The position numbers and the translations under genes were made by a program. The notes beneath the pieces were generated by a model. It did not search any database. It saw only the letters and a program-made list of their open reading frames with translations, and was not told where the DNA came from. From a virus (taxonomy: Duplodnaviria > Caudoviricetes): 64,000 nucleotides of DNA. Positions 3,075 through 57,282 of the stretch are shown piece by piece. Within the stretch, counting starts at the first letter, position 1; each line of letters opens with the position of its first letter. The DNA is taken from positions 31,816-95,815 of the IMG/VR virus record IMGVR_UViG_3300032247_000689; one strand, given 5' to 3'.

Positions 3075-3539
3075 GTGGCAACACTTATCTTTGTCGACCA
3101 TGTATTGCGCAGTCATACAGGTACGCCCGTCAAGCAGGGCATCGCGTTATATAGAACCCTAAAAGAAAAAGAACGCGTACTTCTTCTTTGCTCGCATAAA
3201 AGTAAAGATGAGCGTTGGTTGCGCGAAAACAAGATTAATTTAGTTGATGACCTAATCGGCCCTGATGTTCCTTTTCTTGAAGAGAGTATGGAGTTTCGCC
3301 AAGTCCAGCATTGCCGCGCTAACTGGCCTATTGATTTAGTTATCACAGGGGACACAGAGTTAGCCGCCCGTTTACTTGAGGCGGGGATGACCACGATGTT
3401 ATTCCTACACCCTACCTACATTAGCGAGAAGTTCAGACCTGATAGCCGTCAAGGAGTTAAACCGTGGGCTGAGATGACTGAGCAATTGATTAAGCAACAA
3501 GAGTCCTACGTTGAAGACCATCGAGTTCAAGAACTATGA
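3075..3539 (+). CDS. Degenerate HAD-like fold protein
   Basis: LIFVDHVLR resembles HAD motif I with the first Asp lost; SD GGAG. Confidence 0.45.
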   Translation: MATLIFVDHVLRSHTGTPVKQGIALYRTLKEKERVLLLCSHKSKDERWLRENKINLVDDLIGPDVPFLEESMEFRQVQHCRANWPIDLVITGDTELAARLLEAGMTTMLFLHPTYISEKFRPDSRQGVKPWAEMTEQLIKQQESYVEDHRVQEL

Positions 3540-4990
3540 GACTTATCTATTTGGGGGCAGATGTCCCTAGCAATCGCACCCTTCTTGAAACAACCACCGC
3601 TAACCATGTGGGGGTAAGTTACTGGCGCTTAGTTCAACGGGGGCTACCTAAGAAGAGCCATTACCTGCTGAAGAACTACTTTAAGGATGACTTCTACATC
3701 TATGTGCACCCTGGAATACCTAAAGACAATAGGCTTAGCCCAGAGGAGTTAGACGCTTTTCAAGCTGAGTACGAAGAGTTCATCGCCAACAATATCGAGC
3801 GCATAACCACCTTCAATGAGATTAACGCTGACTGGGTTCCACAGTCATTTGTAGAGCAACAGCGTTCTACCTGCTGGTCACAGGTTCCGCCTATTAAGTT
3901 TCAGCCTATCTGGGAGCCGTCCACAGGGTTTGCAGAACTGAACAAGATGGCTGAGTATTATCTGGACATTGCCGTTCCTGGAGACGCTTTAGAGGCTGAG
4001 ACTCAACTAGCCACGGTAGCCCGCACGTTGGCGCGTAAGGGCACTAGGTTTCATATCCTAGGCTCAGCCAAGCCCGACAACCTTAGGTCTGTCCCTGCTG
4101 AGACCGCCAGCACTATGTCATGGCTTAGCCCTATGATGAATGGTGAAACTATTGTCTGGGACGGTATGAAGTTGGTTCGCTATCCCAAGCGGATGAAAGA
4201 CCAAGCCCGTTCTCGATACCGCAACGTGTATCTGAAAGCTGGTATAAATGCAGATAGGATTCTGGAAGATGACGATAAGGAAGTCTGCCGTCTGGCGGTC
4301 TGGTCTTACCAACAGTATGAAGCGAGGTTAAACGGCGTGAGTAATGAAGACTTCTTATCTGATAAGAGCGAGTGGAGTGAAGTGGAGCGAAGTGGGGAAA
4401 GCACCCCCTCTGATATTGATAAGAAGGTAGGTGAGGTGCGGAAACTTGAGCCTCGAAATCCTGCTGAAATGGGTAATTTACCTGTCTTTGGATTCAATAC
4501 AACAACCGAGGTAGAAGACGATGGAACCATCAAAGATGTGACCACCGTAAGCTCGCAACATGTGTCTTTGCGTATGTGCGATACCTGCTTTGTAGCCGCT
4601 AACTGTCCTGCTTTTAAGCCCGCAAACACCTGCGCTTTTAAGTTACCTGTCGAGGTTAAGACCAAAGAACAACTACGCGCCCTACTCAATGCAATTATAG
4701 AAATGCAGGGACAACGCGTTGCTTTTATGCGTTTTAGCGAAGAATTGAACGGTGGATACGCTGACCCTAATGTTTCTCAAGAGATTGACCGCCTATTTAA
4801 ATTGGTTAAAACAACAAAAGAGTTAGATGACTCACGTGAGTTTATCCGCATGACTGTCGAGCGCCAAGGCTCGGCTGGGGTACTATCATCCATCTTCGGA
4901 GACAAGGCAAACGTCCTCAAAGAACTTCCAAATGAGGGGCTTGATGAGGAGCAAACAACGAAGATTATTAAGGATTTAACAGAAGAATAG
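3536..4990 (+). CDS. TGT/DpdA-like TIM-barrel protein with a C-terminal Cys4 cluster
   Basis: FHILG...ASTMSW...NG resembles the HxLG/DSTSW motifs of phage tRNA-guanine-transglycosylase-like proteins; CDTC-x5-CP-x7-C near the C-terminus. Confidence 0.45.
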   Translation: MRLIYLGADVPSNRTLLETTTANHVGVSYWRLVQRGLPKKSHYLLKNYFKDDFYIYVHPGIPKDNRLSPEELDAFQAEYEEFIANNIERITTFNEINADWVPQSFVEQQRSTCWSQVPPIKFQPIWEPSTGFAELNKMAEYYLDIAVPGDALEAETQLATVARTLARKGTRFHILGSAKPDNLRSVPAETASTMSWLSPMMNGETIVWDGMKLVRYPKRMKDQARSRYRNVYLKAGINADRILEDDDKEVCRLAVWSYQQYEARLNGVSNEDFLSDKSEWSEVERSGESTPSDIDKKVGEVRKLEPRNPAEMGNLPVFGFNTTTEVEDDGTIKDVTTVSSQHVSLRMCDTCFVAANCPAFKPANTCAFKLPVEVKTKEQLRALLNAIIEMQGQRVAFMRFSEELNGGYADPNVSQEIDRLFKLVKTTKELDDSREFIRMTVERQGSAGVLSSIFGDKANVLKELPNEGLDEEQTTKIIKDLTEE

Positions 4991-5104
4991 CCTGTCCTTT
5001 TATCATATAAAAAACGACTAGCACAGGCGGGAATTACCTTCCCGCTGAACTGACACAACTTTATATCTAAACTTAAAAACTCAACTTAATAGAACGGGGT
5101 AAGT

Positions 5105-7123
5105 ATGGCTTTGTCCTTCCATCTGGCGGACGATTTCGTTTCTGGCTACAAAACTAAGAGAGTGCCGTGGGGTTATAAAGACGCTGGCGGTAACTCGGTA
5201 GGAGAGATTACCTTCCTACGAACCTACTCCCGTAAGAAAGAAGATGGGACTAAGGAGACTTGGGTTGAGGTATGCGAGCGCGTAATCAACGGTATGTACT
5301 CTTTGCAGAAAGACCACGCTAAGACTAACCGCCTACCATGGAATGACGCTAAGGCACAGGCTTCTGCTAAAGAAGCTTTTGACCGCCTCTTTAATCTAAA
5401 GTGGACTCCGCCTGGACGTGGGCTTTGGGTTATGGGTACGCCTCTCGTTAATGAACAACGCAACTCAGCCGCCCTACAGAATTGCTCTTTTGTCTCAACC
5501 GAGTCAATGACTAAGCTTAACCCCGCTAAACCTTTTGCTTTCCTAATGGAAGCGTCGATGCTTGGCGTAGGCGTAGGTTTTGACGACAAAGGCGCGGATA
5601 AAGACTTTACTATTTATGCACCGCAACAAGGAGATACATATGTCATCCCAGATACCCGAGAAGGATGGGTTGAAAGTACCTCTGCCCTCATCAATAGTTA
5701 CCTTAAGCCAGATTCGAAGTCGCCTACTTTCGACTACGGGCTCATTAGACCAGCAGGAACTCCGATTAAAACCTTTGGCGGAACCGCAGCGGGGCACGAA
5801 CCGCTAGAAAAACTACACAACTACATTCGAACTCTTTTTAAGGAGCGTTCAGGTGAAAAGCTTACTCGCAAGGATATTGCTGATATTGGTAATCTCATCG
5901 GCGTGTGTGTGGTTAGTGGAAACGTGCGCCGTTCTGCTGAACTTTTAATGGGTCGTTTGGATGACAAGGACTTTCTCAATCTAAAGAACCCAGAGGTATA
6001 CCCAGAGCGTAACTCGTATGACCCTAAGAACCCTGGTTGGGCTTGGATGTCAAACAACTCGGTCGAAGTTTGTGTTGGAGACGACATGAGCCACATCATT
6101 GATGGCATCGCTCTCAACGGTGAGCCTGGGGTTATTTGGATGGACGTGACTCGTAAGTATGGTCGTCTCATTGACCCACCTAACAACAAGGATTGGCGCG
6201 CTGCTGGGTACAACCCATGCGCAGAACAATCTCTTGAATCCTTTGAGTGCTGTACATTGGTGGAGACTTACATCAACCGCCACGATTCTCTTGATGACTT
6301 CAAGCGCACATTAAAGTTTGCGTATCTCTATGCCAAGACGGTAACTCTCTTGCCTACCCACTGGGAAGAAACAAATGCAATCATGCAACGCAACCGTCGT
6401 ATCGGTACATCTATCTCTGGTATTGCTAACTTTGCAGACCGCGTAGGACTTCCAACTCTTCGTGAGTGGATGGACTCTGGCTACGAAGTTGTACAGGCAT
6501 ATGACAAATCGTATTCAGAGTGGCTTGGTATCCGTGAGTCAATCAAGACTACAACCGTTAAGCCTAGTGGCACGGTCTCTATCTTGGCGGGAGAATCTCC
6601 TGGTGTGCATTGGACTCCTGGTGGACAATACTTCCTTCGTACTATCCGCTTTGCAAACGATGACCCTATGTTGCCTCTCTTTCAGTTTGCAGGATATAAA
6701 GTTGAACCCGCTTCTGAATCACCTAAGACTACTTCGGTAGTGTACTTTCCTATTCAATCTCAGGCTCTTCGAAGCGAGAAAGATGTCTCTATCTATGAAA
6801 AGACCTCTCTTGCCTCTATGGCGCAACGCCATTGGTCTGATAACTCTGTATCTGTAACGGTCTCTTTCCAGCCCAACGAAAAGAAAGATGTTGGTACAGT
6901 ATTACATATGTTTGACGGGCAGCTCAAAACCGTTTCCTTCTTACCTATGGGGAACGAGACCTACCCGCAAATGCCATACACACAGATAACTAAAGAAGAA
7001 TACGAAGCGAATACATTAAAACTCTTGCCGATTGACTTTACTGACGTATATGCAGGCATGGCGGCTGACGCTATTGGTGAAAAGTATTGCTCTACCGACT
7101 TCTGTGAAGTACCTAAGCCATAA
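5105..7123 (+). CDS. nrdJ: Class II adenosylcobalamin-dependent ribonucleoside-triphosphate reductase (monomeric type)
   Basis: PPGRGLW, LQNCSF, GNVRRSAE, NPCAEQ, TVKPSGT, and a C-terminal CxxxxC. Confidence 0.93.
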   Translation: MALSFHLADDFVSGYKTKRVPWGYKDAGGNSVGEITFLRTYSRKKEDGTKETWVEVCERVINGMYSLQKDHAKTNRLPWNDAKAQASAKEAFDRLFNLKWTPPGRGLWVMGTPLVNEQRNSAALQNCSFVSTESMTKLNPAKPFAFLMEASMLGVGVGFDDKGADKDFTIYAPQQGDTYVIPDTREGWVESTSALINSYLKPDSKSPTFDYGLIRPAGTPIKTFGGTAAGHEPLEKLHNYIRTLFKERSGEKLTRKDIADIGNLIGVCVVSGNVRRSAELLMGRLDDKDFLNLKNPEVYPERNSYDPKNPGWAWMSNNSVEVCVGDDMSHIIDGIALNGEPGVIWMDVTRKYGRLIDPPNNKDWRAAGYNPCAEQSLESFECCTLVETYINRHDSLDDFKRTLKFAYLYAKTVTLLPTHWEETNAIMQRNRRIGTSISGIANFADRVGLPTLREWMDSGYEVVQAYDKSYSEWLGIRESIKTTTVKPSGTVSILAGESPGVHWTPGGQYFLRTIRFANDDPMLPLFQFAGYKVEPASESPKTTSVVYFPIQSQALRSEKDVSIYEKTSLASMAQRHWSDNSVSVTVSFQPNEKKDVGTVLHMFDGQLKTVSFLPMGNETYPQMPYTQITKEEYEANTLKLLPIDFTDVYAGMAADAIGEKYCSTDFCEVPKP

Positions 7124-7135
7124 CGATTAAATAAT

Positions 7136-7168
7136 GAAGCCCCTGTGTGAGTGTTGCACAGGGGCTTC
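7136..7168. terminator. Hairpin between convergent nrdJ and the minus-strand island
   Basis: GAAGCCCCTGTG / CACAGGGGCTTC 12-bp stem. Confidence 0.75.
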
Positions 7169-7286
7169 TTAGTATTAAACGCAGGTACGGCTATCTCTCT
7201 CTTCCTAAAACCAATAAAAGAAAGTGAAAGGTCTTGACCGCCCTTAGCATGGAAAGGGTGTGCTTTAACGCCCAATACTATAGGGA

Positions 7287-7442
7287 TTAAATCTCTTCTT
7301 CGTCGTCCTCTTCTTCATCATCACAGAGGCAATCATCTCCACACTCTCCGCAATCGAAGCATTGGTCATCTTCCCACTCTTCAAGGTCATCTTCATCTTC
7401 AAGTTCAATCTCTTCAATATCAGGGGTTACTTCATCAGCCAC
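7287..7442 (-). CDS. Extremely acidic 51-aa Cys-containing protein (start GTG 7442)
   Basis: 30 of 51 residues are D/E with no K/R; CxxCxxC..CxC. Confidence 0.6.
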   Translation of the reverse strand: MADEVTPDIEEIELEDEDDLEEWEDDQCFDCGECGDDCLCDDEEEDDEEEI

Positions 7443-7446
7443 TCTC

Positions 7447-7734
7447 TTATGCCTCTCTCTTGAAGGATACTGTACCTGACCAAGACATAGGCTTGCCTTT
7501 AACATCAAGGTCTGCGCCAGCAATCATCTTGCAACTCTTTCTAGTTGTCATGGCTTGGACTCTCTCTTTAACCCAACGCTTGCCAGCACTAGCGTTAGAC
7601 CACGCTGTTTTTTCTACAACATAGCCTTCGTCAATTCCTTCATCTCTTACGCTAACGCTTGCTAACCATGCGCCACCCTTTTCAGGGTTCTTTTTTAGTG
7701 TTGCCTCGAATATAGCAGTTACTTTTCTAGCCAT
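7447..7734 (-). CDS. Hypothetical protein
   Basis: SD AAGGAG; in the operon chain. Confidence 0.7.
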   Translation of the reverse strand: MARKVTAIFEATLKKNPEKGGAWLASVSVRDEGIDEGYVVEKTAWSNASAGKRWVKERVQAMTTRKSCKMIAGADLDVKGKPMSWSGTVSFKREA

Positions 7735-8146
7735 TGTTATTCTCCTTTGTGACCCAATAGTACGGCATATCAGGCAATACGTTTGGGAACTTGTCTGAGT
7801 AGTATTCAGGGTTCTTTCTTATTAAGTTGCTTTGGTGAGATAGGTGAAGCCGTCTCTCTCCTAACCATGACGGTAGGATTACTCTACCATCATAGTTAAA
7901 TCTCTCTAGCATATTATCCGTGTAGCCACGCGCGCTCCACTCTATGCACATCTCTCTCCCATACTCTTTAAGCGCGCTCTCATAGCCCGCCCACATGAGT
8001 ACGGCAGGGTGGTTACGCCAGCCCTTTGTCTCTCCACGCAGGGCTCTTAATACTTGCCACGCTTCGACTCTCTGTTTACCTAGTCTCTTATAGTCCAGCA
8101 CTTGCGCCGTCTCTCTGAAACTAGGATAGGGAAGGAAGGTCTGCAC
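7727..8146 (-). CDS. Pyrimidine-dimer DNA glycosylase / endonuclease V-like protein (MSMEG_6728 family)
   Basis: MQTFLPY...LDYKRLGKQRVEAWQ...HPAVLMW...HLSHQSNLIRK. Confidence 0.8.
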   Translation of the reverse strand: MQTFLPYPSFRETAQVLDYKRLGKQRVEAWQVLRALRGETKGWRNHPAVLMWAGYESALKEYGREMCIEWSARGYTDNMLERFNYDGRVILPSWLGERRLHLSHQSNLIRKNPEYYSDKFPNVLPDMPYYWVTKENNNG

Positions 8147-8147
8147 G

Positions 8148-8300
8148 TTACGCCTCTAGGTATTGCACTATGACCCCAAGCGTTGTGTGTATAGCGCAAT
8201 CACAATCGCTCTCTTTATGGTCGTTGAAAGAATTAAAGTGTTCTAAATTATCCTCATAGATTACGTCAATAAGTTCGTTTATTGTATATAAATCACTCAT
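8148..8300 (-). CDS. Hypothetical 50-aa protein (not in the ORF track)
   Basis: MSDLYTINELID...YLEA fills the gap between two genes. Confidence 0.5.
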   Translation of the reverse strand: MSDLYTINELIDVIYEDNLEHFNSFNDHKESDCDCAIHTTLGVIVQYLEA

Positions 8301-8301
8301 C

Positions 8302-8742
8302 TTATCTCTCTCTCATACTGTTGAAGGCAATATCAACTGCGATATTAAACTTTATATCCATTTCCTCTGTCCACTCGATAGAGTTCATCTCTCCCCAGTT
8401 GATAAGGTTATGCTCATCTATGAAGTTATGAATCTCCAGCGCGGTATCCTCATTAACGGATAACATCTTACCTATCCACATGGTAAAGATATTCGTTTGG
8501 TGCGGTTTGCGTGTAGGCACTTCATAATCGTTGCAGATAGCGTCCACTAGGGCTACCCCTGCTATGTCTCTCTTGCTCCCCACATAGGTAAGGCGCAATC
8601 CTGAATCGGATAGGGCTTGAAGTACAGTTATATATTCTATATCTACATTTATATCTTTGTTAAGTTTGATTAGTTCTTCTAGCCTTATACCTAGTACGCA
8701 AGCGTAATCCTTCTGCGCAGTAACCTTATCGTTGTCGTTCAT
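8302..8742 (-). CDS. Hypothetical protein
   Basis: SD AAGGAG upstream. Confidence 0.65.
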   Translation of the reverse strand: MNDNDKVTAQKDYACVLGIRLEELIKLNKDINVDIEYITVLQALSDSGLRLTYVGSKRDIAGVALVDAICNDYEVPTRKPHQTNIFTMWIGKMLSVNEDTALEIHNFIDEHNLINWGEMNSIEWTEEMDIKFNIAVDIAFNSMRER

Positions 8743-8784
8743 ACTTCTCCTTCGATATTGGTCGAGTTACACTCGGCGCACTCA

Positions 8785-8910
8785 TTACATCTCATCTTTC
8801 TTATGCTTCCGTTTCCTAGTGTATCGCTTCTTATTCTTTATGGGGGTAGCGGAATTACTACGGCGTAACTCTAATAAACGGCGTAGTTCCTCTGCTGACT
8901 TCTTAAACAT
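8785..8910 (-). CDS. Basic 41-aa protein with an ArfA-like C-terminal motif (not in the ORF track)
   Basis: MFKKSAEELRRLLELRRSNSATPIKNKKRYTRKRKHKKDEM; SD AAGGA. Confidence 0.6.
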   Translation of the reverse strand: MFKKSAEELRRLLELRRSNSATPIKNKKRYTRKRKHKKDEM

Positions 8911-8930
8911 CTTTCCTTATCCTTTGTTAG

Positions 8931-9009
8931 ATAACCCTAGCGCGTACTACGTCCTTAGTGTGTCGAACGGTACGTTGCAAGTCAATTCGCGTAATCGCGC
9001 TAGGGTTAT
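8931..9009. repeat. 14-bp perfect inverted repeat enclosing a promoter-like spacer
   Basis: ATAACCCTAGCGCG (8931-8944) / CGCGCTAGGGTTAT (8996-9009). Confidence 0.75.
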
Positions 9010-9012
9010 TCT

Positions 9013-9173
9013 GTAACTCAATAGGTACTGCGCTTTCGTGTCTATCATTTACTCGATACTATGCTGGCGAAACTATACTGCTGGTTACGGCTATCATAGT
9101 TTTCACCGTAATCCGTCGCGTTGTTATGGAGTAAGACCCTGTTTCATAGGCTAGACCAATCCTATTAAGTAAC
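9013..9173 (-). ncRNA. Putative structured RNA, unit A of a tandem pair
   Basis: Closing stem GUUACUUAAUAGG/CCUAUUGAGUUAC; shares UAGGAUUGGUC and CGCAGUACCUA with unit B. Confidence 0.5.
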
Positions 9174-9179
9174 TTTGCA

Positions 9180-9338
9180 CCCCGTTAGGTACTGCGACAC
9201 CATAGTTCACTCGAATCTATTACATAAACTCATTGGAACACTTTTGCTAATTGCCTATTGCCTTATTAAAGATAGCCCATGCCTATCTCATTGGGGCTCA
9301 CGTTCGCCATGTGGGGCTCTTGACCAATCCTAACGGGG
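9180..9338 (-). ncRNA. Putative structured RNA, unit B of a tandem pair
   Basis: Closing stem CCCCGUUAGG/CCUAACGGGG; same conserved 11-mers; length 159 vs 161 nt. Confidence 0.5.
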
Positions 9339-9358
9339 AATCCTCTATGTAGTTTTAT

Positions 9359-9973
9359 TTACCAACTCGCTTGGTAGTGGTAATCGTACTCTCCCTCAAT
9401 ATCACTCGCAAGTATTGAGTTAATCGTCTCTGCTGTCTCTGCAAGTTCACGATAGTAATACTCGTCCTTATCGGTACTACCGAAAAAGAATCCTGATACG
9501 GGTGGGATAGGGTCATCGCCTTCATCAAGGATAACCCTACTCGAACGCGCTGTCTCTTTGGCAAACGCTTCCATAATAGATTTGACCGTACTGTTCTCTG
9601 AACCCGAATCTATTGTATAAACTTCTGAATCTTGAGTAGGTACTGCCTTATGCCTATCCTGTAAGCCTACGACACACGCGTTACGCAACGCGATAAGGTC
9701 GTCTCTGCTCATTGAGATACGCTGGCACTCATCTACGCCGTTGGCGCAGTTGCGAACTATCCAACCGTGAATAGCGTTAGCCTTACGCCAATACGCTACG
9801 CACTTAGTAACTCTAACGCTACCGTATTCTGCGGTCGGTATCGAGTTTAGACCCGACGCTTCGATAACATTATCGTATTCAAGATTATCTTTGCGAGTCA
9901 TTTCGCCATTAACGCTCTCGAAGTCATACGCGCTTATGTGCTTCTCTGCATATAGGTACATATCTAATCCCAT
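9359..9973 (-). CDS. Conserved phage protein (MGLDMYL...YWRKANAIHGW...YQASW family)
   Basis: Recognisable widespread phage family of unknown function. Confidence 0.8.
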   Translation of the reverse strand: MGLDMYLYAEKHISAYDFESVNGEMTRKDNLEYDNVIEASGLNSIPTAEYGSVRVTKCVAYWRKANAIHGWIVRNCANGVDECQRISMSRDDLIALRNACVVGLQDRHKAVPTQDSEVYTIDSGSENSTVKSIMEAFAKETARSSRVILDEGDDPIPPVSGFFFGSTDKDEYYYRELAETAETINSILASDIEGEYDYHYQASW

Positions 9974-10104
9974 TTGTGTTTTCCTTTATTGTCTAATTGT
10001 TCGACGTCGCACCATACGAAGCCGTCCTGATGTCTAGTTATCTGTCCTAATATGTCGAACCATTGTTCGTCCACTTCGGCAGTAATTCTGAACGTGTCGG
10101 TCAT
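9964..10104 (-). CDS. Hypothetical 46-aa protein (not in the ORF track)
   Basis: MTDTFRITAEVDEQWFDILG...; ATGA coupling to the upstream ORF. Confidence 0.5.
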   Translation of the reverse strand: MTDTFRITAEVDEQWFDILGQITRHQDGFVWCDVEQLDNKGKHKWD

Positions 10105-10295
10105 AGGATTACCCTTCTGTTGTCCTCTAGGTAGAACATATAATCGAGCGCGGTCGTTATTAAATTGTTTAAGTTCGGTATATCTAACGCGGTATCCGCG
10201 CTATTTATTCCGTCCTGTAATCGAAGTAATACGTCCTTCATAAGTTTCGCGTAATCTACGGGAGACTCGTCGAAGGTAATCGTATCCTTGTCCAT
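10101..10295 (-). CDS. Hypothetical protein
   Basis: SD TAAGGAG. Confidence 0.6.
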   Translation of the reverse strand: MDKDTITFDESPVDYAKLMKDVLLRLQDGINSADTALDIPNLNNLITTALDYMFYLEDNRRVIL

Positions 10296-10407
10296 TAGAA
10301 CTCCTTACTGTTGTAGGTATATCCGCTAACCTTATTTGAGTTATGGATAATAGCAAGCGTTACGGCTACCGTGTATAGGGCTAGTACGCCTAGCCCTATC
10401 GCGGTAA

Positions 10408-12288
10408 TCATGCGACCCTGTTTGTGTTGAGCGTGGATTTGACTAGGCTCTGCGCCACTTCAAGAACGTCCTTTGGCTCGGCAACCGCGTGAAAGATACT
10501 CGCGCCATGATTTATACGCTTGATAGTGCTTCGCGCAGACTCGCCATAATCATCTCCGAGACGGCTCTGCTCTAATAATTCTTGGTAATACTTATATCCA
10601 CCTAAGAATACTACGCAAGTGATGAAGCCCTTATCGTTTAAGGATTTAATAATCGCGTTGCAATCATCGTCCATATCCCACTCGCCGTCGGTAACTATGA
10701 AGGCTAACTTTATCGAACGCTTGCTCATAGTGAGAATACGCTCTGCTTCAATTAAGCCACGAATAGGATTAGTGCTACCCGAAGCGTGGAGATAACGATA
10801 GGTACTAGGCTTAGCCTTGTCCTTCTTGTCATAGATAAGGCTACTCTCATGGTTGAAAGATATAGTAGTCACGTTGCCGTTGATACCTTCGATACCGCGC
10901 TTGATAATCCACGCGTTCTCCATGACCGAGCGCATGAGCCCACCCATACTGCTACTGTGGTCGGTTAAGATTACCGCTTCAATATCTGTATTAGGGTTAC
11001 CCGTATCCCATTGGTCGAACATGGTACGGATAGAGTTCACGTTAGGGCTCATGGTACGGGTGATATTTAACTTACCGCGCGCGTTAAACTTATCCCACTT
11101 AGGGTCGCCGTTGCGAACGATACGCTCTAATTCTTGACCGAAGCGACGGGCAATCGAGCGCGCTGACTCTGATACGCTCATCTCTGAACATGATACCTGC
11201 TTAACCGCACCGCGTACTTCGTCGCTATTAAGGATAGCCTTACGCGTTTCATTGACTTCGCGCTTGATAGTTTCGTTTTCCTTGATAGCCTTCATGCGGT
11301 TATTGAGTAACTTAGAGATAGCCTTATCTTTATCGTCGAACTCTACGTCCGCGCCTTCGTAAGTGCCGTCTCCACCCACGCCGACATTAGGATTATTACC
11401 GATAGTTTCGATAGGGTTATCCTTGTTCATGCGAGCGTTGCGTTCTTGTAAGCGTTCTTGCTCTGCGTTCTTTGCAGGACGACCCTTTACAGGGAACTCG
11501 CAACCGCCATGTGGGGGTAGGTGAATCTCACCCTGTTGCTCATCTAAGCCGACAATCTCTGCCATGCGAGCGATAAGCACCTTAGCCTTATCGAAGTCGG
11601 CAGGGAATACCAATACGCGATAGGCGTGGATAAGTGTGTGTAGTTCTTGCGCTAAGGCTACGCCATGAGTAGCGATAAACTCATCTGCAACCGCTTGGCG
11701 TACTTCGATAGGTAGATAGGTGCGACCCGTAATAATATGGAAGTAATTGCCAATCGTATCTTGATTATCGAGTAGGTACTGCGTGGTCGCGCTCTCTAGG
11801 AATAGTCGAGTCACGGGATATTTAGCCACTAGTAACGCTTCCGCGCGCGCTTCCTCTAGGATATAGGTTGCGCGACGGTACTTATTATCCTTGACATATT
11901 GGATAAGGTTACTTCCTGCGCGTGGCGAGAATAGAACGTGAGCGACTTCGTGGTAGTTGAGCCCGTGAAGGTGCATGATATTATCTTGAGATACATCTGC
12001 AATAAGGTTATCGTTAAATATAATCTCGCGACCGTTGCTCATAGCATTAGTTTCCATAGACGGGTCATTAACTACCGATACGGTTAGTTCAGAGTCGCCC
12101 GTGATAATTCTATCGGCGCGCTGATATACCGCGCTGATAGCGTTAAGGCGGTTAGCCCTATCCTGATAGTCGGCGAGAATATTCTCTCTAGTGCGACCGA
12201 ACTCGTCGGTCGCACCCCACCGTAAGTCTCCGCTTTCTAGGGCAGAGAGTTCATCGTTGTATCTAGCCCTAGCCACGAAGCACCTCAT
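10408..12288 (-). CDS. Zincin-motif + VWA domain protein (CobT-like partner of a MoxR ATPase)
   Basis: HEVAH (HExxH); MIDAS DHSSSM, T(NP), VTDG. Confidence 0.8.
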   Translation of the reverse strand: MRCFVARARYNDELSALESGDLRWGATDEFGRTRENILADYQDRANRLNAISAVYQRADRIITGDSELTVSVVNDPSMETNAMSNGREIIFNDNLIADVSQDNIMHLHGLNYHEVAHVLFSPRAGSNLIQYVKDNKYRRATYILEEARAEALLVAKYPVTRLFLESATTQYLLDNQDTIGNYFHIITGRTYLPIEVRQAVADEFIATHGVALAQELHTLIHAYRVLVFPADFDKAKVLIARMAEIVGLDEQQGEIHLPPHGGCEFPVKGRPAKNAEQERLQERNARMNKDNPIETIGNNPNVGVGGDGTYEGADVEFDDKDKAISKLLNNRMKAIKENETIKREVNETRKAILNSDEVRGAVKQVSCSEMSVSESARSIARRFGQELERIVRNGDPKWDKFNARGKLNITRTMSPNVNSIRTMFDQWDTGNPNTDIEAVILTDHSSSMGGLMRSVMENAWIIKRGIEGINGNVTTISFNHESSLIYDKKDKAKPSTYRYLHASGSTNPIRGLIEAERILTMSKRSIKLAFIVTDGEWDMDDDCNAIIKSLNDKGFITCVVFLGGYKYYQELLEQSRLGDDYGESARSTIKRINHGASIFHAVAEPKDVLEVAQSLVKSTLNTNRVA

Positions 12289-13153
12289 TGAAGTAGTTCA
12301 TATCTGCTTGGCGGTATCCCATAGACTCTAGGATATTGTCCTTATGTGTATCACACGCTAGGCGTACCCCACCGCGCTCCTCACGGTTGAAGCCATTAAC
12401 GAAGGACATAATTGCGAAGTCCACGTCGAAGTTGCGAGCGTTATTTATGAAGGCAACGAGCGAACGGGTTGAGATAGGGGTAGATAACTCCTCTTTAGCG
12501 TATTGCTCGCGAAGTTGGTCGGCTAGGATTAGAAGTGCTTTATTACCGACTACCTTGTTCTCGATAGCCCTATCGTAAGGGAACTCCAACTTAATATGGA
12601 AGCGGTCATTGAAGGCTTGGTTGAGTTCTTGTGTGCCTTTATAGCCATAGTTCATATCGGCTACGATTAGTAAGTCCTTATGCGCCTTGATTACTTCGCC
12701 ACCGTTCTCCAATAGTTGAATCTCACGGCGGTAATCGAGAAGTGAGAATAGGACGGTAGAGACACGGGTAGGGAGAAAGTTCACCTCATTGAGAAGTAAT
12801 ACGCCACCATGTCGGACGATTTGGGTAACTGCACCGTCCTGCCAACGATAACCCTGTCCGTCTGCGCGTGGAATCCATGCGCCGAATAGTTGAGAAGGGT
12901 CGATAGCATTAGAGTTCGATACATTGAAGTAACGCATACCCTTAGCCGAAGCATAACTCTGAACGGCGATAGTCTTACCGCTACCTGCTTCACCTTCGAT
13001 AAGGATATTAGTGCCGTCGGCAAGCGCGCGGTCAAAGATTTCCCACTCGGTTTTACGTCCGAAGTGGCGGTTGATATACCCGTGAGATAGAGATATATCG
13101 GGTACTGTAATCATGGAGTAGGTCATATCCTGCTCATTGGTCGTTGTATTCAT
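12269..13153 (-). CDS. MoxR/CbbQ/CobS-like AAA+ ATPase (start moved to ATG 13153)
   Basis: Walker A GEAGSGKT; WQDG; Walker B variant LLLNE; AFNDRF; STR sensor II; SD AGGAAGG. Confidence 0.85.
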   Translation of the reverse strand: MNTTTNEQDMTYSMITVPDISLSHGYINRHFGRKTEWEIFDRALADGTNILIEGEAGSGKTIAVQSYASAKGMRYFNVSNSNAIDPSQLFGAWIPRADGQGYRWQDGAVTQIVRHGGVLLLNEVNFLPTRVSTVLFSLLDYRREIQLLENGGEVIKAHKDLLIVADMNYGYKGTQELNQAFNDRFHIKLEFPYDRAIENKVVGNKALLILADQLREQYAKEELSTPISTRSLVAFINNARNFDVDFAIMSFVNGFNREERGGVRLACDTHKDNILESMGYRQADMNYFNEVLRG

Positions 13154-13205
13154 TGTGCCTTCCTGTGCGCCATTGGCGCGGTTATGGGTTTGCCTTACAT
13201 AGAGA

Positions 13206-13234
13206 AAGATAGGGGAAGGGATAGGTATAGGCAA
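13206..13234 (-). promoter_or_regulatory. SigA-type promoter of the MoxR-VWA operon
   Basis: TTGCCT-N17-TATCTT on the minus strand, downstream of an ATAAC pair at 13255/13266. Confidence 0.5.
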
Positions 13235-13496
13235 CTTCCTACTACGCGTGGAGTATAACGATTTGATAACGATTTCCTGCTCTCTCTGCCTCTCTTATCC
13301 GATAACTCTCCCCAACCGATAGCCCTAGACGTGGCTGTATCGCCATGCTCTCTCCACTACCATAGGTAGTAGCCGAAAGTCAATAGCGGAAAGGTGTGTT
13401 CTCTCTCACTCTCTAAGGTTAGCGGGCTCTCTCGCCTCTCTCGCGCAAAATTGTTATGAAATCGTTATAAATCTCTCGGCGTGTCGATTTGACAGA

Positions 13497-13612
13497 GTTT
13501 GTGTTGGTTAATAGCTAGCTATTAACCAATTAACAATAAGCCTAAGCTTATTGTTAACGGGGTTTAAGGGGTGTCCCCTGATAGGGTTATGGGTGGGTGG
13601 GTCAACACAAAC
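13497..13612. repeat. Branched palindromic element Y1 (divergent copy)
   Basis: GTTTGTGTTG...CAACACAAAC ends; 26-bp perfect palindrome 13504-13529; hairpin 13530-13557; G-tract 13584-13601. Confidence 0.75.
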
Positions 13613-13626
13613 ATTTCGCGCCCAAT

Positions 13627-13640
13627 GTTTCACGTGAAAC
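13627..13640. promoter_or_regulatory. parS-consensus site
   Basis: GTTTCACGTGAAAC, an exact 14-bp actinobacterial parS palindrome (15/16 to TGTTTCACGTGAAACA). Confidence 0.7.
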
Positions 13641-13730
13641 GGTGATAGCCCTAGCGCGCTAGGCACTAGGGCTATCGTTACCCTGTTTCCGAAAGGTTAG
13701 AAACTCAACAGGGCGCTAGGGGTAGACGAC

Positions 13731-14300
13731 CTACTCCCCCTTATCCCCGCGAATTACTCCGCGAAGGACATCTAATATGTTAGAGGGGAAATCGGTTGGT
13801 ACTGCCCCTGATTCAGTAAGGAGTTCAAGTGGGTCGTATTCACCTGAAAGTATCTTGTATGGGTCTAACTTAGAGAACTTATCCACCTTGCAGTTACTAC
13901 GAAGGAAGGCTGTCGCTAGGTCAGGTGCTTCCATCTCGAATTGGGAGATAAACCTACCCAATACGCCCATAGTAGAGAATAACTCCGCCGCATGACCGCA
14001 AGCCCATAGGATATTGCAAGCGATAGCGAGGGCGTACATATCGTCCTCGTTAGGCTTATCGTTCTGTATTACATTGGTAATCGCAGAGTTGGCTAGGGTT
14101 ACGCTCATTTTTTGACGGAACTCGAAGTCACCCTTGAGTGTTTGGCAAATAATTGCCGAATAGAGTTCAGGTTCGTGAAGGTCACGGGTAAGGTTAGGGA
14201 ACAACGGGTCAATGTTGTCCCCTTCCTCAATATCCTGCGCGTCAGGCAAGAGGTTAATAGTGGCGATAATCTCGTTAAAACGATACTTGAGGTCGCTCAT
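13731..14300 (-). CDS. Hypothetical protein
   Basis: 189-aa ORF, ATGA-coupled. Confidence 0.7.
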   Translation of the reverse strand: MSDLKYRFNEIIATINLLPDAQDIEEGDNIDPLFPNLTRDLHEPELYSAIICQTLKGDFEFRQKMSVTLANSAITNVIQNDKPNEDDMYALAIACNILWACGHAAELFSTMGVLGRFISQFEMEAPDLATAFLRSNCKVDKFSKLDPYKILSGEYDPLELLTESGAVPTDFPSNILDVLRGVIRGDKGE

Positions 14301-14788
14301 TGCTCGCTCACATCTGTATCGAAGTCAGAGTCATCTAACTCCCAAGAGTCGATGTCAATATCGTAACTACCTGACTCGCCCTTGTAGGAGATTGTCACGC
14401 TAATACTAGCCTCGATGTCAGCGTCCTCTAGGACTATTTCACCTGCGCGTTCCTCGTTCTCGGCTTCTACGTCCTCGAACTCGGCAACTGTGTACCCCTT
14501 GTAATTAACGGCAACTGTGAACTTGCGCATTAGGGTTTCAATGTTATCCCAACCTAAGCGGTCAGCGATAGTGTTATAGGTCTCGATGGCTTCATCGTTG
14601 GTAAGTGTGCCGTTGTCGGCTAGGTCGCGGAGTGCGCCAAGAACGCCCTCTGCGTGTGTGGCGTTAAGGTTGTCCTTAGCGCGCTGGATACGAAGGTCTA
14701 CATCTGCGTAGGCTTCGTTTACTGCCTTAGTTGTCTGTGCTACCACATCATCTGCGGTAAAGAACAACTGTGTCTGTTCGTATGACAT
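14297..14788 (-). CDS. Acidic hypothetical protein
   Basis: D/E-rich C-terminal half; first gene after a cassette promoter. Confidence 0.7.
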   Translation of the reverse strand: MSYEQTQLFFTADDVVAQTTKAVNEAYADVDLRIQRAKDNLNATHAEGVLGALRDLADNGTLTNDEAIETYNTIADRLGWDNIETLMRKFTVAVNYKGYTVAEFEDVEAENEERAGEIVLEDADIEASISVTISYKGESGSYDIDIDSWELDDSDFDTDVSEQ

Positions 14789-14832
14789 TTGTACTGCTTC
14801 CTGTGGGTGGTCGTTATCCCACTACCTGATTT

Positions 14833-14921
14833 AACCATACTCTCCCCCTCTCTATTCCAACTCTTTTATAACGATTTGATAACGAAAAGATAACATTTCG
14901 TTATTCTCAGCCAACTCTCAG
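14833..14921 (-). promoter_or_regulatory. Cassette promoter: GGAAT-N18-GTT + ATAAC array + TCTCAG-N5-TCTCAG
   Basis: Promoter 14833-14858; ATAAC at 14868/14879/14890, GTTAT at 14900; TCTCAG at 14905/14916. Confidence 0.7.
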
Positions 14922-14931
14922 GAATCTCCCA

Positions 14932-15018
14932 TGTTTGTGTTGGTTTATTAGCAAAATATGACGTGTCATATTTTGCAGACATAGCTGCTATGTCTGCGCT
15001 AATAAACCAACACAAACA
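14932..15018. repeat. Three-way-junction (T/Y-shaped) element Y2
   Basis: 21-bp outer stem enclosing abutting hairpins 14953-14974 and 14975-14997; all Watson-Crick pairs. Confidence 0.9.
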
Positions 15019-15019
15019 A

Positions 15020-15049
15020 TAAGCCTAGCGGGGGAAGCCGCTAGGCTTA
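15020..15049 (-). terminator. Terminator-like hairpin after the DUF3846 gene
   Basis: TAAGCCTAGCGG/CCGCTAGGCTTA; the U-rich tail is supplied by the Y2 arm. Confidence 0.65.
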
Positions 15050-15057
15050 CTGCTGAC

Positions 15058-15435
15058 TTATGAAAAGGATACGAACCCTGGCGCGTTGGTATTCCATATT
15101 TGGCTATCGTATTTGAGGAAGTAATCTACTTGCTCATCGGATAATCCTAGTGTGTAGCCCTCATCATCTGCGCCACCTGTGATAATGACATCGCCCATGA
15201 TTACATCTGACATATCGTACATATCAACCCATAGCGCGGTTGCGGTTGGGTTTTGAGTTAGCCCGCTAAACTTTCCGTTCTCGTTGAGCCACATATCAGG
15301 TTGGCTAGGCTTATCGTGTAGAGAGACACACTCAATCATGCCACCTACGGCTTCAGATAGAACTTCGTAACAGGTATCGTTGGTGAACTCAACCACAGAC
15401 TTCTCACCTGTGGTCGTAATCTTAATTGCTTTCAT
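15058..15435 (-). CDS. DUF3846-like protein (start moved to ATG 15435)
   Basis: LSEAVGGMIECV...WLNENGK...NPTAT...IMGDVIITG; SD GAAAGG. Confidence 0.75.
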   Translation of the reverse strand: MKAIKITTTGEKSVVEFTNDTCYEVLSEAVGGMIECVSLHDKPSQPDMWLNENGKFSGLTQNPTATALWVDMYDMSDVIMGDVIITGGADDEGYTLGLSDEQVDYFLKYDSQIWNTNAPGFVSFS

Positions 15436-15583
15436 CGGGTTTCCTTTCGGTCGGGGTGTGGGGTGGATAGCCCTAGACTTGGCTCTAGGGCTATCCTGCA
15501 ACCTGCTGACCCGTAGCGGTTGCGAGATAGGCAATTACGGCTTGTACTGGCTCGGATAGCCTATCCCAAACTTAATGCGGGTC

Positions 15584-15889
15584 TTACTTCTTTACTCCAA
15601 GAGTTTTGCGGAGATTCTTAATGCGCTCATAGAGAGTGCCTTCGGATACTCCTAGTGATTCAGCCATAAGGCTAATAGGTAGCCCTGCCTTGTGTGCTTG
15701 CCATGTAATGGCGTCGCGGTTGATGATGGCTTCCTTAAGAGCCACATCTGCTTCAACTAGGCTTTGGCAGAACTGTGCTTTCTGCTCTAGGCTTAGTTTT
15801 GACTTGCGGTACTTGCGCGTAGGTGCTTTACCTGTCGCGCGCGCTGTACGGATACGCTCCTTCAGCGCGTCTATGTCCTTGTGTGACAT
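15584..15889 (-). CDS. Helix-turn-helix DNA-binding protein
   Basis: GLPISLMAESLGVSEGTLYERIK. Confidence 0.7.
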   Translation of the reverse strand: MSHKDIDALKERIRTARATGKAPTRKYRKSKLSLEQKAQFCQSLVEADVALKEAIINRDAITWQAHKAGLPISLMAESLGVSEGTLYERIKNLRKTLGVKK

Positions 15890-15930
15890 ATATTCTCTTT
15901 CCGTGAGGGGTCGTTCTCACTATCTAATAG

Positions 15931-16002
15931 AACCACACCTCTGCGGATTCTCTTTCACTTTTTTGATAACGATTCGGTAACAATCTCATAACGAAATGTT
16001 AT
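15931..16002 (-). promoter_or_regulatory. Cassette promoter (variant GAAAG-N18-GTT) + ATAAC array
   Basis: ATAAC 15966, GTAAC 15977, ATAAC 15988, GTTAT 15998. Confidence 0.6.
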
Positions 16003-16005
16003 AAA

Positions 16006-16096
16006 TGTTTGTGTTGGGGTTTATATGCAAAAAATAACGTGTTATTTTTTGCAGACATGGCTTCCATGTCTGCGCATATAAACCCCAACACAAACA
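16006..16096. repeat. Three-way-junction element Y3
   Basis: 23-bp outer stem; hairpins 16029-16050 and 16051-16073. Confidence 0.9.
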
Positions 16097-16099
16097 AGA

Positions 16100-16125
16100 C
16101 AGCCCCAGCCTTTCGGCTGGGGCTG
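16100..16125 (-). terminator. Terminator hairpin after the DUF932 gene
   Basis: CAGCCCCAGCC-GAAA-GGCTGGGGCTG on the minus strand, followed by TCTTGTTT. Confidence 0.75.
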
Positions 16126-16140
16126 CTTTATAACGTTTCG

Positions 16141-17088
16141 TTATAGTGCCATTACGGCTTCTAGAACCCGCGCCTTTTCTTGCTGGATTCCAGTCTCGAA
16201 TCCACTAGCGGCAACTGCCATGCCCTCTGTCATAGGGTTATCGCCATTGCGGTACCAGTCGATTCTTTCGGTGAGCGCGTTAAGCGCGCCCCACTTAGTG
16301 CCAGTAATATTGGCGTTAGTTGGAGATGAGACATAGAGCCCACGAGTGAGGTCGAATTTTGCTTCCCACTTAGTAAGTTGAGCCTTCTTATCGTCCTCGG
16401 GCTTTGGATAGATAGTCTCGAATACCTTGTCGAATTGCGCGGTTGTGATTGGTGTCTGGTAAAGACCCTGTGCGATTGCATCGAATTCATCTAAGTAAGC
16501 ATGTGTGAGCGCAAGAGCCTCGCGCGCTTCTGTGATTCTGCCCTGTGTGCCTTGAGTGTGGCGAACAGACCATGATTGCTTAGCGCGCTTGAAGGCTAGG
16601 CTTAGCGTATTTTGGCAGATAACGCGAACAGGCGTTACACATGCGCGGATTGAACTAGAGCCGTCATGTGATGATGAAACTAAGAGATATGTCTTAGTTG
16701 TGTCATTTGCGCCAGTTGGGTCGATTGTAAACTCGCGGTCGATTGTGAGCGCACCGAAGATTGTGCGACCCTTGCGGAAGAAACCTGCGGATTCCCATTG
16801 GGCTCCGCCGTCAAGAAGATTGTCGCCGAAAGCGAGTAAATCCTCATTTTGGTATACATCGTATTTTTCGCCTACGATTGCGAGAGATTCCACGCCGTTA
16901 GGGGTATCGCGTAGCACCATATATTCATTAGAGAGAGGCTTGACGCCAGTTGGGTAATTTACAGGCTCCTTGCGGACATTCCAGTTGGCAAGACCTGCGC
17001 GGTTGAGCATTTCGCTCGTTGTGACATGCTCATTAGGGCGGAAAATCTCCCGCGCTAATGTGTGCCACGTTGGTGTGCGTAGTGACAT
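16141..17088 (-). CDS. DUF932-family phage/plasmid protein (start moved to ATG 17088)
   Basis: WH.L, AGLANWNV, VGEKYDVYQNE, YLLVSSSHDGS, TPVRVICQNTL, VRHT, GTKWGALNALTE. Confidence 0.85.
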   Translation of the reverse strand: MSLRTPTWHTLAREIFRPNEHVTTSEMLNRAGLANWNVRKEPVNYPTGVKPLSNEYMVLRDTPNGVESLAIVGEKYDVYQNEDLLAFGDNLLDGGAQWESAGFFRKGRTIFGALTIDREFTIDPTGANDTTKTYLLVSSSHDGSSSIRACVTPVRVICQNTLSLAFKRAKQSWSVRHTQGTQGRITEAREALALTHAYLDEFDAIAQGLYQTPITTAQFDKVFETIYPKPEDDKKAQLTKWEAKFDLTRGLYVSSPTNANITGTKWGALNALTERIDWYRNGDNPMTEGMAVAASGFETGIQQEKARVLEAVMAL

Positions 17089-17134
17089 TTTTAACCTTTC
17101 GATATTGCTAGCCCTATGGCTAGGCACCCAATAT

Positions 17135-17245
17135 AACCTAATACGCGGTAGTGCTATTCCACTCTCACATAACGATTAGATAACGATTCCATAACATTTC
17201 GTTATACAGGTATCTCTCAGGAAACTCTCAGGATTCTCCTCTCAG
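17135..17245 (-). promoter_or_regulatory. Cassette promoter: GGAAT-N18-GTT + ATAAC array + TCTCAG repeats
   Basis: Promoter 17135-17160; ATAAC at 17169/17180/17191, GTTAT at 17201; TCTCAG at 17215/17226/17240. Confidence 0.7.
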
Positions 17246-17252
17246 CTGAAAA

Positions 17253-17343
17253 TGTTTGTGTTGGGCTGTATATGAAAAATATGCATGGCATATTTTTGCA
17301 AAGACCGCTTCGCGACTTTGCCATATACAGCCCAACACAAACA
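17253..17343. repeat. Three-way-junction element Y4
   Basis: 22-bp outer stem; hairpins 17275-17297 and 17298-17321. Confidence 0.88.
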
Positions 17344-17345
17344 AG

Positions 17346-17377
17346 TTATCCACAGGCGGGGAAGTGCCTGTGGATAA
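17346..17377. promoter_or_regulatory. Inverted pair of consensus DnaA boxes
   Basis: TTATCCACA (17346-17354) and TGTGGATAA (17369-17377) within a 12-bp inverted repeat. Confidence 0.65.
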
Positions 17378-17585
17378 GTTAGCCGCCGCGAAAAAGGTTA
17401 GGGAAAACGCGGCGGCTAAGGCTAGGTTGTGCTATTCCAGCACTCGTCACAAGTAAAGCCATCTGGATATGCGTCTGGAAGTATTGGCGTTAGTACAGAC
17501 CCATCAGGGAGCTTCTTTGCGCACTTCATACAGATTAGTGAGCCTTCCGCGTCCTCAACGCCGATAAGCCTAGTGAACGGAGTAA

Positions 17586-17774
17586 TCACGCTGGCACCCA
17601 TGTAGTCCAGCGCGTTTCAAGGTTATCCTGCAAGAGGCGTAACCTTACGCTACCTGTGCGATTGCGTACCTTCTCGACTACAAAGCCTACTTCTTTAGAT
17701 TGCTCGGTTTCGTATAGGTCGCCAATCTCGGGCTCGAAATTGAGTGGCAAGATGTGGTCGGTGAGTATTGCCAT
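17586..17774 (-). CDS. Hypothetical small beta-rich protein
   Basis: SD GAAAGG; in the operon chain. Confidence 0.6.
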   Translation of the reverse strand: MAILTDHILPLNFEPEIGDLYETEQSKEVGFVVEKVRNRTGSVRLRLLQDNLETRWTTWVPA

Positions 17775-17927
17775 TTATTTATTCCTTTCGTAATGGAAGT
17801 CACAGATTGTGGCGTCCGCGTCTATTGAGTAGTGACAATTAGTTTTTACTGTGTGGTGAGTGTAATGAAAGTGGGCGAGCCCTGCAAGGGTGGCTATTGC
17901 CACCCCTGCAAGAATTACGCGCTTCAT
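17775..17927 (-). CDS. Small membrane/secreted protein, 50 aa (not in the ORF track)
   Basis: MKRVILAGVAIATLAGLAHFHY...; ATGA coupling. Confidence 0.5.
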   Translation of the reverse strand: MKRVILAGVAIATLAGLAHFHYTHHTVKTNCHYSIDADATICDFHYERNK

Positions 17928-18082
17928 GGTTTCAATCCAAATTGCTCAACGACAGTCTTAGTACATTCCTCAATTCCCGAAATCTTGCCTTCTGTGTAGG
18001 CAATCTCGATAATGTGCGCCACTAGATTAGTGGTAGTGGTATCTAGGCTCGCTTCTGCGAGTAGGGCTAGGGCTTGCTTCAT
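17924..18082 (-). CDS. Hypothetical 52-aa protein, first gene of the island (not in the ORF track)
   Basis: SD GAAAGG; MKQALALLAEASL... Confidence 0.55.
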   Translation of the reverse strand: MKQALALLAEASLDTTTTNLVAHIIEIAYTEGKISGIEECTKTVVEQFGLKP

Positions 18083-18128
18083 GTTCGTAACCTTTCGTTA
18101 TGAAGGCGTTGTTGCCTTCAACTACTAT

Positions 18129-18247
18129 AACCGAGAGCGCGCTAGTGCTATTCCCACTATATATAACGAAATGATAACGATTAGATAACAATATGTTATA
18201 CAGCCTGCTCTCAGGTACCCCCCAGGGTTAACTCAGACAATTCTCAG
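18129..18247 (-). promoter_or_regulatory. Cassette promoter: GGAAT-N18-GTT + ATAAC array + four 11-bp-spaced TCTCAG-like boxes
   Basis: Promoter 18129-18154; ATAAC at 18163/18174/18185, GTTAT at 18195; boxes at 18209/18220/18231/18242. Confidence 0.7.
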
Positions 18248-18308
18248 GAACGGGGCCAGGAAACATCCGCACCTATTACATAGTTCTATAGGCAGTAGCC
18301 CTTTTTGC

Positions 18309-18343
18309 TTGACATGGTGAGGCAGTAGCGCTATGGTGCGGTA
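18309..18343 (+). promoter_or_regulatory. Consensus SigA promoter, leaderless
   Basis: TTGACA-N17-TATGGT-N6-ATG. Confidence 0.75.
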
Positions 18344-48971: not shown

Positions 48972-49007
48972 GGCATAATTTAACCACCACCTTATCAAGG
49001 AGTCTTA

Positions 49008-49370: not shown

Positions 49371-49382
49371 GGGGACTAACTC

Positions 49383-52684: not shown

Positions 52685-52692
52685 AGGAACTC

Positions 52693-52866: not shown

Positions 52867-52875
52867 GGAGAAACA

Positions 52876-53477: not shown

Positions 53478-53501
53478 TCCCGCCCCTTTTAAGGAGTCCC
53501 A

Positions 53502-57269: not shown

Positions 57270-57282
57270 GGAAAGGGAATAA

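Follow-up and report, generated by a model that had tools for sequence, protein, structure and literature searches.

Why would a phage strip two common tetranucleotides from one block of genes and leave hundreds of copies in the rest of its genome? The question is raised by a stretch of 64,000 nucleotides, here called the window, which comprises bases 31816-95815 of the 95,815-bp IMG/VR record IMGVR_UViG_3300032247_000689, a tailed phage of the Caudoviricetes. All positions below are those of the window. The block in question, here called the island (Table 1), is encoded on the opposite strand to most of the genome and is strongly depleted in the palindromes GGCC and AGCT. The reading that we favour, and that the balance of the evidence makes modestly probable, is that the island is a pre-early arm that leads and is unprotected, next to a genome end with short repeats at about 18.25 kb, and that the remainder of the genome is shielded later.

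The depletion is real and highly non-random. Depending on the model, about 21-30 copies of GGCC and about 34-40 of AGCT are expected in the island, and none of the former is found. The six copies of the latter lie at 13513, 13517, 13545, 14983, 17244, and 17510, five of them within repeated structured intergenic elements. A second-order Markov model gives expectations of 29.7 for GGCC and 39.9 for AGCT. When the 19 island genes are shuffled among synonymous codons the expectation is 21 ± 3.8 for GGCC, against none observed, and 34 ± 4.7 for AGCT, against five. The depletion, first proposed in a preliminary description of the window, thus survives both corrections. When the 136 strand-symmetrised tetranucleotides are ranked by their depletion in the island compared to the rest, these two come first. 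Other palindromes are affected as well. ACGT is found 14 times in the 19 genes where the codon shuffles predict 30, and 6-base palindromes number 57 against 133 expected, or 54 against 109 when those with GATC, CCGG, GGCC, or AGCT cores are left out. CCWGG, GGWCC, GCWGC, and CCNNGG are nearly absent. There is no purge in the right arm (observed/expected, as in all paired counts below: AGCT 67/62, GGCC 15/20, 6-bp palindromes 98/106), and very little depletion in the rest of the genome (AGCT 343/370, GGCC 111/138). Over-represented in the island relative to the codon shuffles are GCGC (83/52), CGCG (75/53), and CTAG (51/31). For CpG the observed/expected ratio is 0.77 outside the island and 1.15 over its whole length, reaching 1.46 within single windows of 3 kb, and the ratio for TpA is also well above that of the rest of the genome.

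Much of what the preliminary description reported agrees with the counts. It found no GGCC in 7141-18250, the next one being indeed at 18254, and about six copies of AGCT, none of them before 13510. All genes were said to point leftward, and every credible gene in 7265-18082 is on the minus strand. TCTCTC, described as frequent, is found 25 times in the island (2.3 per kb), not at all to its left, and 11 times in the 45.7 kb to its right. The statement that both words are common on either side holds to the right only, since the GGCC-free span begins as early as 3326 and AGCT is already reduced over the genes for a Tgt-like transglycosylase and ribonucleotide reductase (RNR). The four genes left of the island, which include these two, show intermediate values (AGCT 10/22, GGCC 2/9, 6-bp palindromes 30/52).

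The phage belongs to a large and uncultured family, as judged from the RNR relatives found in at least 598 IMG/VR contigs (the best 80 at 79-90% identity) and the capsid-protein relatives found in at least 597 (the best 80 at 88-96%). Its genome is colinear with that of the Streptomyces phage BRock, a myovirus, with 39 colinear tblastn matches and amino acid identities of 71% for the capsid protein, 57% for the portal, and 55% for the large terminase. From this colinearity and the homologous capsid, portal, terminase, sheath, and replication genes it is placed as Borockvirus-like, distant and in another genus. The GC content is 46%, compared to 52% in BRock and in LuckySocke, another cultured relative. 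The host is an actinobacterium, since the genome encodes two WhiB proteins and a MoxR-type ATPase whose best cultured homologues are found in actinophages. A greedy map gives 146 open reading frames (ORFs) covering 93% of the genome, all of them on the plus strand save those of the block 7265-18082 and a few isolated small ones. A nucleotide search with the island against 50,697 phage records gave no match. The record is closed by a 123-bp overlap. This was considered as a true terminal repeat and rejected; because a gene starts at record base 7 and G001, a relative, shows an equally long overlap at another place in its genome, the 123 bp are taken to be an assembly circle, at a place unrelated to the island.

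A purge of this kind is found at the same position in many related phages. The comparison covered 43 non-duplicate loci anchored on the RNR gene with at least 5 kb on each side, the left 10-12 kb (backbone plus RNR) being set against up to 10 kb on the right (island), and strong avoidance was defined as an observed/expected ratio below 0.25 with at least six expected. Avoidance of palindromic tetranucleotides was restricted to the island in 63 cases, restricted to the backbone in four, and shared in 35. It is specific to palindromes: by the same criterion, 63 of 679 palindromic cells (9.3%) but only one of 5160 non-palindromic cells (0.02%) were island-only. With loci anchored on a conserved right-arm gene there were 19 island-only cases, one right-arm-only case, and 17 in both, showing that the depletion ends at the divergent junction in the relatives too. 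The avoided words vary with the lineage. AGCT and GGCC are the commonest, but GTAC, TGCA, ACGT, GCGC, CGCG, CATG, ATAT, AATT, and TTAA are also found, and such lineage-specific sets fit a varied host restriction repertoire. In whole-genome scans of the relatives G006, G007, and G009 the windows with extra avoidance fall on the opposite-strand block, and in G009 eight tetranucleotides are missing from the island and none from the backbone. This recurrence of island-only avoidance strengthens the reading that the island enters first.

Syntenic homologues of five island genes, encoding a 95-aa protein, the DenV-like glycosylase, the 626-aa protein, the MoxR-type ATPase, and the DUF932 protein, are found in 8-26 of 80 RNR-anchored loci. 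Their amino acid identities are 40-77%, compared to 80-90% for RNR, which indicates both that the block is an old and fast-evolving part of the family and that the absence of sites has persisted across deep divergence. The RNR gene has a mean of 3.1 AGCT where the island is AGCT-poor and 7.2 otherwise, a statistic that ignores relatedness, and the AGCT density upstream is equal in the two groups of lineages (4.2 vs. 4.4 per kb). The divergence of the syntenic genes and the spill into the conserved RNR gene together indicate that the depletion is kept up in place. Purging about 40 sites from the island would be useless while the backbone keeps 343 copies of AGCT, unless the backbone is insensitive. 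The evidence as a whole favours selection at the position of the island.

The same data bear on the explanation that comes next in probability, namely that the island was recombined in from lineages avoiding AGCT and GGCC throughout their genomes, so that the depletion reflects history and not local selection. Relatives that avoid AGCT genome-wide do exist (e.g., L151 and L173), nothing else in the family varies as much as the island, and its CpG ratio sets it apart from the rest. Blocks with avoidance patterns of their own are also found elsewhere in the family. In the window, a second zone of tail-fibre-like genes (48972-57450) is poor in AGCT, GGCC, and CGCG with other palindromes at normal levels, a signature unlike that of the island, and is probably an imported host-recognition module. 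In the reverse complement of G006 (L265-L269), a structural block at 80-96 kb is free of GATC, which is found about three times per 2 kb elsewhere in that genome, evidence that lineages which differ in their history of avoidance have recombined. An import would, however, not be expected to give 63 island-only against four backbone-only cases and 19 against one across the junction, nor at least ten different site spectra that all fall at one position. The homologues at 40-77% identity still lack the sites, the depletion reaches into the conserved RNR gene, and words totally missing from a backbone are always missing from its island too, so that no island keeps such a site. An imported origin of the depletion is therefore considered unlikely.

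Under the reading of a leading arm, we infer the following course of events. The island would be the pre-early arm of a linear virion genome ending at the divergent junction near 18.25 kb. It would enter the cell first, or would for some time be the only phage DNA exposed, and the host polymerase would transcribe it inward from repeated early promoter/operator cassettes. During this period the arm would have to survive the type II restriction enzymes of the host without protection. The remaining approximately 85% of the genome would be shielded by later entry, either by a two-step transfer as in T5 or by transcription-coupled entry of the T7 type; alternatively, island products might disable restriction. 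Selection would then strip the sites of the restriction systems of local hosts from the arm and about 3 kb beyond it, and sites that cannot be shielded would be stripped from the whole genome. GATC and CCGG, the putative unshieldable sites here, are absent from the entire 95.8 kb, where codon shuffles predict 234 and 125 copies, respectively, in the non-island plus-strand genes alone. About half of the related contigs likewise lack them, while G001 has 304 GATC and 215 CCGG. TCGA was considered as a palindrome avoided in the backbone only, and was rejected, as CGA words are avoided in general, including the non-palindromic GCGA, CGAA, and CGAC.

The preliminary description took the island for a pre-early module, and the early-like organisation is borne out, with small genes and repeated cassettes. 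The proximal half (13.2-18.25 kb) contains five to six such cassettes, each composed of an array of 11-bp-phased boxes, large hairpins, and one to four small genes. The triple ATAAC array is found in the island only and nowhere else in the genome. The box arrays and hairpins are predicted to be repeated early promoter/operator cassettes.

The position of the genome end is suggested by the cultured relatives. BRock and LuckySocke have exact direct terminal repeats of 221 and 344 bp, respectively, and in both the opposite-strand block of 11-12 kb is a single-copy terminal arm with its genes pointing inward. In these two phages, then, the block lies at the physical end of the virion DNA, as in T5; the record studied here is itself a circular assembly. 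By colinearity, the end of BRock and LuckySocke corresponds to the divergent junction, and a genome end near 18.25 kb is thus supported by synteny. Of the two places named for an end in the preliminary description, this is the one that agrees with the relatives, the other, near 7.2 kb, being without support. Nucleotide conservation at the junction was also considered as a sign of a terminal repeat, but only a 75-bp block is common to two relatives. This block includes a run of six C and the GGCC that comes first beyond the island, and it may have a role in packaging or at the genome end. In LuckySocke (L286; OR725497.1, 101870-102541) an annotated ArdA-like antirestriction gene is found just outside the terminal opposite-strand block.

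A terminal repeat of 10-13 kb, also proposed in the preliminary description, is not found in these relatives. It might still be argued that the island is a redundancy of 10-15 kb as in T5 and SPO1, which carry their pre-early genes in such repeats, and that its sites are avoided because the repeat enters first or because a second copy made at packaging escapes modification. A circular assembly would hide the collapsed copy, and a repeat of 11-15 kb, added to the 95.8 kb of unique sequence, would bring the total close to the 112-116 kb found in the cultured relatives. The short repeats and single-copy blocks of BRock and LuckySocke speak against this, as does the lack of marked repeat borders in the sequence, and we hold a long repeat to be decidedly unlikely.

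If the island is a leading arm, the shield of the backbone might be a general one that does not depend on sequence, such as staged entry or a broadly acting anti-restriction function of island genes. About 85% of the genome would then be safe from essentially any type II enzyme, only the leading arm of 11-15 kb would have to be free of sites, and the island-only spectrum of each phage would mirror the restriction repertoire of its host population in a family of abundant, uncultured actinophages of freshwater type. This wider proposal is tentative, and in our view possible rather than probable.

A different kind of shield would be a modification of the virion DNA, for instance by 7-deazaguanine introduced by a Tgt/DpdA-like enzyme, with the island remaining unmodified and hence avoiding sites. 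A Tgt/DpdA-like gene adjoins the island and is kept in G001, G002, and BRock, and no phage DNA methyltransferase of the C5 or N4/N6 type (PF00145, PF01555) was found in the genome. Searches of the genome for QueC and FolE were negative, no mechanism for a regional exemption is known, and some relatives purge the A/T-only words TTAA, AATT, and ATAT from the island alone. The last point weakens the explanation, because a guanine modification could not protect such words in the backbone, and it is regarded as very improbable. Least credible of all is that the purged words are the targets of early endonucleases by which the phage degrades host DNA, so that only the phage DNA then present in the cell must lack them: this has been proposed for the A1 protein of T5 (10.1101/866236, in its section 4.6) and would need stepwise entry as well, but the avoided words correspond to classical type II sites, their spectra are very different even in close relatives, and no nuclease was recognised among the 10-11 largest island ORFs in profile scans with PHROGs, Pfam, and NCBIfam.

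Several observations weigh against the island being a leading arm shaped by restriction. There is no island depletion in BRock, in G001, or in about half of the family, that of LuckySocke is only mild (AGCT 19/43), and T5 itself is only mildly depleted by the same measure. It is the distal half of the island, farthest from the presumed end, that has been purged most completely (within 6922-13512: AGCT 0/19, 6-bp palindromes 5.3 per kb), which the reading does not explain, nor does it explain the leak of the depletion into the RNR and Tgt-like genes and the second depleted zone in the tail-fibre genes. This zone and the GATC-free block of G006 show that imports can make a local depletion, and the CpG signature of the island would also fit a separate origin. 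When the ends of IMG/VR contigs are taken as a proxy for physical ends, they are scattered without a pile-up at the junction, which is probably a matter of assembly breaks at island repeats and of strain variation. Finally, among the 10-11 largest island ORFs the same profiles revealed no known anti-restriction gene, nor any DNA-transfer protein or 5'-deoxynucleotidase.

The recognisable products of the island include two ORFs of the DUF932 and DUF3846 families, on whose roles nothing useful was found in the literature. The closest IMG/VR relatives of the DUF932 protein are only 31-36% identical to it. The ATPase gene is present in 16 of the 20 loci with island-only depletion and in five of the 24 without (Fisher p = 2e-4, with no correction for relatedness). 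Presence of the MoxR/CobS-like gene with its vWA/CobT-like partner (10408-13234; loci L105-L184) tracks island-only depletion, a lead that is confounded by relatedness. A PDB sequence search with the 626-aa partner gave only matches at E = 0.25-0.9. A 101-aa ORF (15584-15889, minus strand) weakly resembles region 4 of ECF-type sigma factors, with an E value of 0.002 that falls short of the cut-off for the family. At the distal end, a small, very acidic and Cys-rich ORF of about 52 aa was read by eye (7287-7443, minus strand), and the peptide could be a DNA mimic. Within this palindrome-poor island lies a perfect 14-bp parS-type palindrome, GTTTCACGTGAAAC, at 13627-13640, which is present as a single copy in the window even when up to two mismatches are allowed. 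Two perfect, inverted matches to the DnaA-box consensus, TTATCCACA, make up the hairpin at 17346-17377. DnaA boxes were considered as a stop signal like that of T5, and were rejected as being at chance level (8 vs. 6.6 expected).

Table 1. Positions of the island, its borders, and the other features of the window (paired counts are observed/expected)
Feature	Position	Strand	Basis
Opposite-strand island: about 19 leftward genes, GGCC 0, AGCT 6, few 6-bp palindromes	7170..18250	-	counts, Markov, codon shuffles
GGCC-free span, 14.9 kb, the longest GGCC gap in the 95.8-kb genome; extends leftward over the Tgt-like and RNR genes	3326..18253		counts
AGCT-free span	6922..13512		counts
Tgt/DpdA-like transglycosylase; 3' part within the depleted domain	3536..4990	+
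RNR, conserved backbone gene, 80-90% amino acid identity to relatives; depletion spills in	5105..7123	+
GC-rich hairpin with 15-bp stem, terminator-like, at the convergent RNR/island border	7136..7168
Pyrimidine-dimer DNA glycosylase, DenV-like, PF03013	7727..8146	-
626-aa partner of the ATPase, probably vWA/CobT-like (lead only)	10408..12288	-
MoxR-type AAA_5 ATPase, CobS-like, 321 aa	12269..13234	-
Arrays of 11-bp-phased (G/T)ATAACGA boxes (range 13254..18199)	13254, 13448, 14849, 15947, 17161, 18155
Large hairpins after box arrays	14932-15018, 16006-16096, 17253-17343
DUF3846 protein, 158 aa	15058..15534	-
DUF932/TIGR03299 "phage/plasmid-like protein", 328 aa	16141..17127	-	profile scans
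Divergent junction, sharp right border of the depletion, corresponds to the physical ends of BRock and LuckySocke	18083..18343		synteny
Operator array inside the divergent junction	18155-18199
75-bp non-coding block in the divergent junction, 84% identical at the same position in relatives L240 and L241	18208-18282
Second AGCT/GGCC/CGCG-poor zone, tail-fibre-like genes	48972..57450	+	AGCT 4/29, GGCC 2/19, CGCG 3/21

The principle that one region of a phage genome decides its fate under restriction is not new: it is known from T5 and has lately been described for T7-like phages as well, the immunity there resting on one or a few sites. What the present family adds is a signal in which about 10 kb have lost as many as eight to ten different 4-bp palindromes with hundreds of copies left in the other 85 kb, and in which many lineages show such a purge, the words differing among them. 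Should the order of entry be as proposed, sequence alone would suffice to tell which end leads and where the pre-early module lies in an uncultured family, and the remainder of the genome would be expected to have a strong and general shield, with its genes in the island. Genome-wide counts of restriction sites would then mislead predictions of host range, and the restriction repertoires of hosts could be inferred from viral metagenomes.

Among the known systems, T5 offers one of the closest comparisons. According to section 4.1.5 of 10.1101/866236, EcoRI and CRISPR act on the first-step-transfer region of T5 only. Like the island, this region is a block of about 10 kb, or about 8-12% of the genome, which contains small genes and is rich in repeats and inverted repeats; it lies at a genome end, as the island would by synteny. 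In both cases a vulnerability of the restriction type is confined to one region, seen here as avoidance of sites in the island alone. When the same measure is applied to T5 (NC_005859, L280-L285), the first-step-transfer region gives AGCT 22/36, GGCC 12/26, CGCG 28/52, and CCGG 15/26, there is no deficit of 6-bp palindromes (14.2 vs. 13.7 per kb), and the rest of the genome is at expectation. The family studied here is far more extreme, and the effect concerns 4-bp type II words. T5 also differs in being a siphovirus of E. coli, the present phage being a relative of myoviruses with an actinobacterial host, and in that its region lies within an annotated terminal repeat of 10.2 kb, compared to 221-344 bp in the relatives of this phage. 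No homologues of the T5 genes A1, A2, and dmp were recognised among the 10-11 largest island ORFs, and while T5 has paired DnaA boxes, here there is the one inverted pair and no enrichment in the window.

For the Autographiviridae, PMC12455610 describes how motifs in the first-injected region decide the sensitivity to type I restriction. Transcription in these T7-like phages runs inward from the leading end, as it would in the island if this is oriented by synteny, and the leading region is highly variable, as is the island across its family. They are podoviruses with Ocr-type genes that meet type I systems, whereas the words avoided here are type II palindromes of 4-6 bp, and neither Ocr nor ArdA was recognised among the 10-11 largest island ORFs.

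In the host-takeover modules of SPO1- and Twort-like phages, which are found at the genome end within terminal repeats of 8-13 kb, small genes are arranged in numerous short operons, every one of which has a strong early promoter and a terminator. The island is organised in a similar way, as many short operons, though no homology was detected. Further close counterparts are those of the Borockvirus BRock and of LuckySocke, which are colinear with the phage studied here, share with it the position of the opposite-strand block, again made up of small genes, and carry a Tgt-like gene nearby. Their island proteins have no detectable homology to those of the present island, and the three differ in the degree of the purge: the island of BRock is unpurged, that of LuckySocke mildly purged, and the one described here strongly purged.

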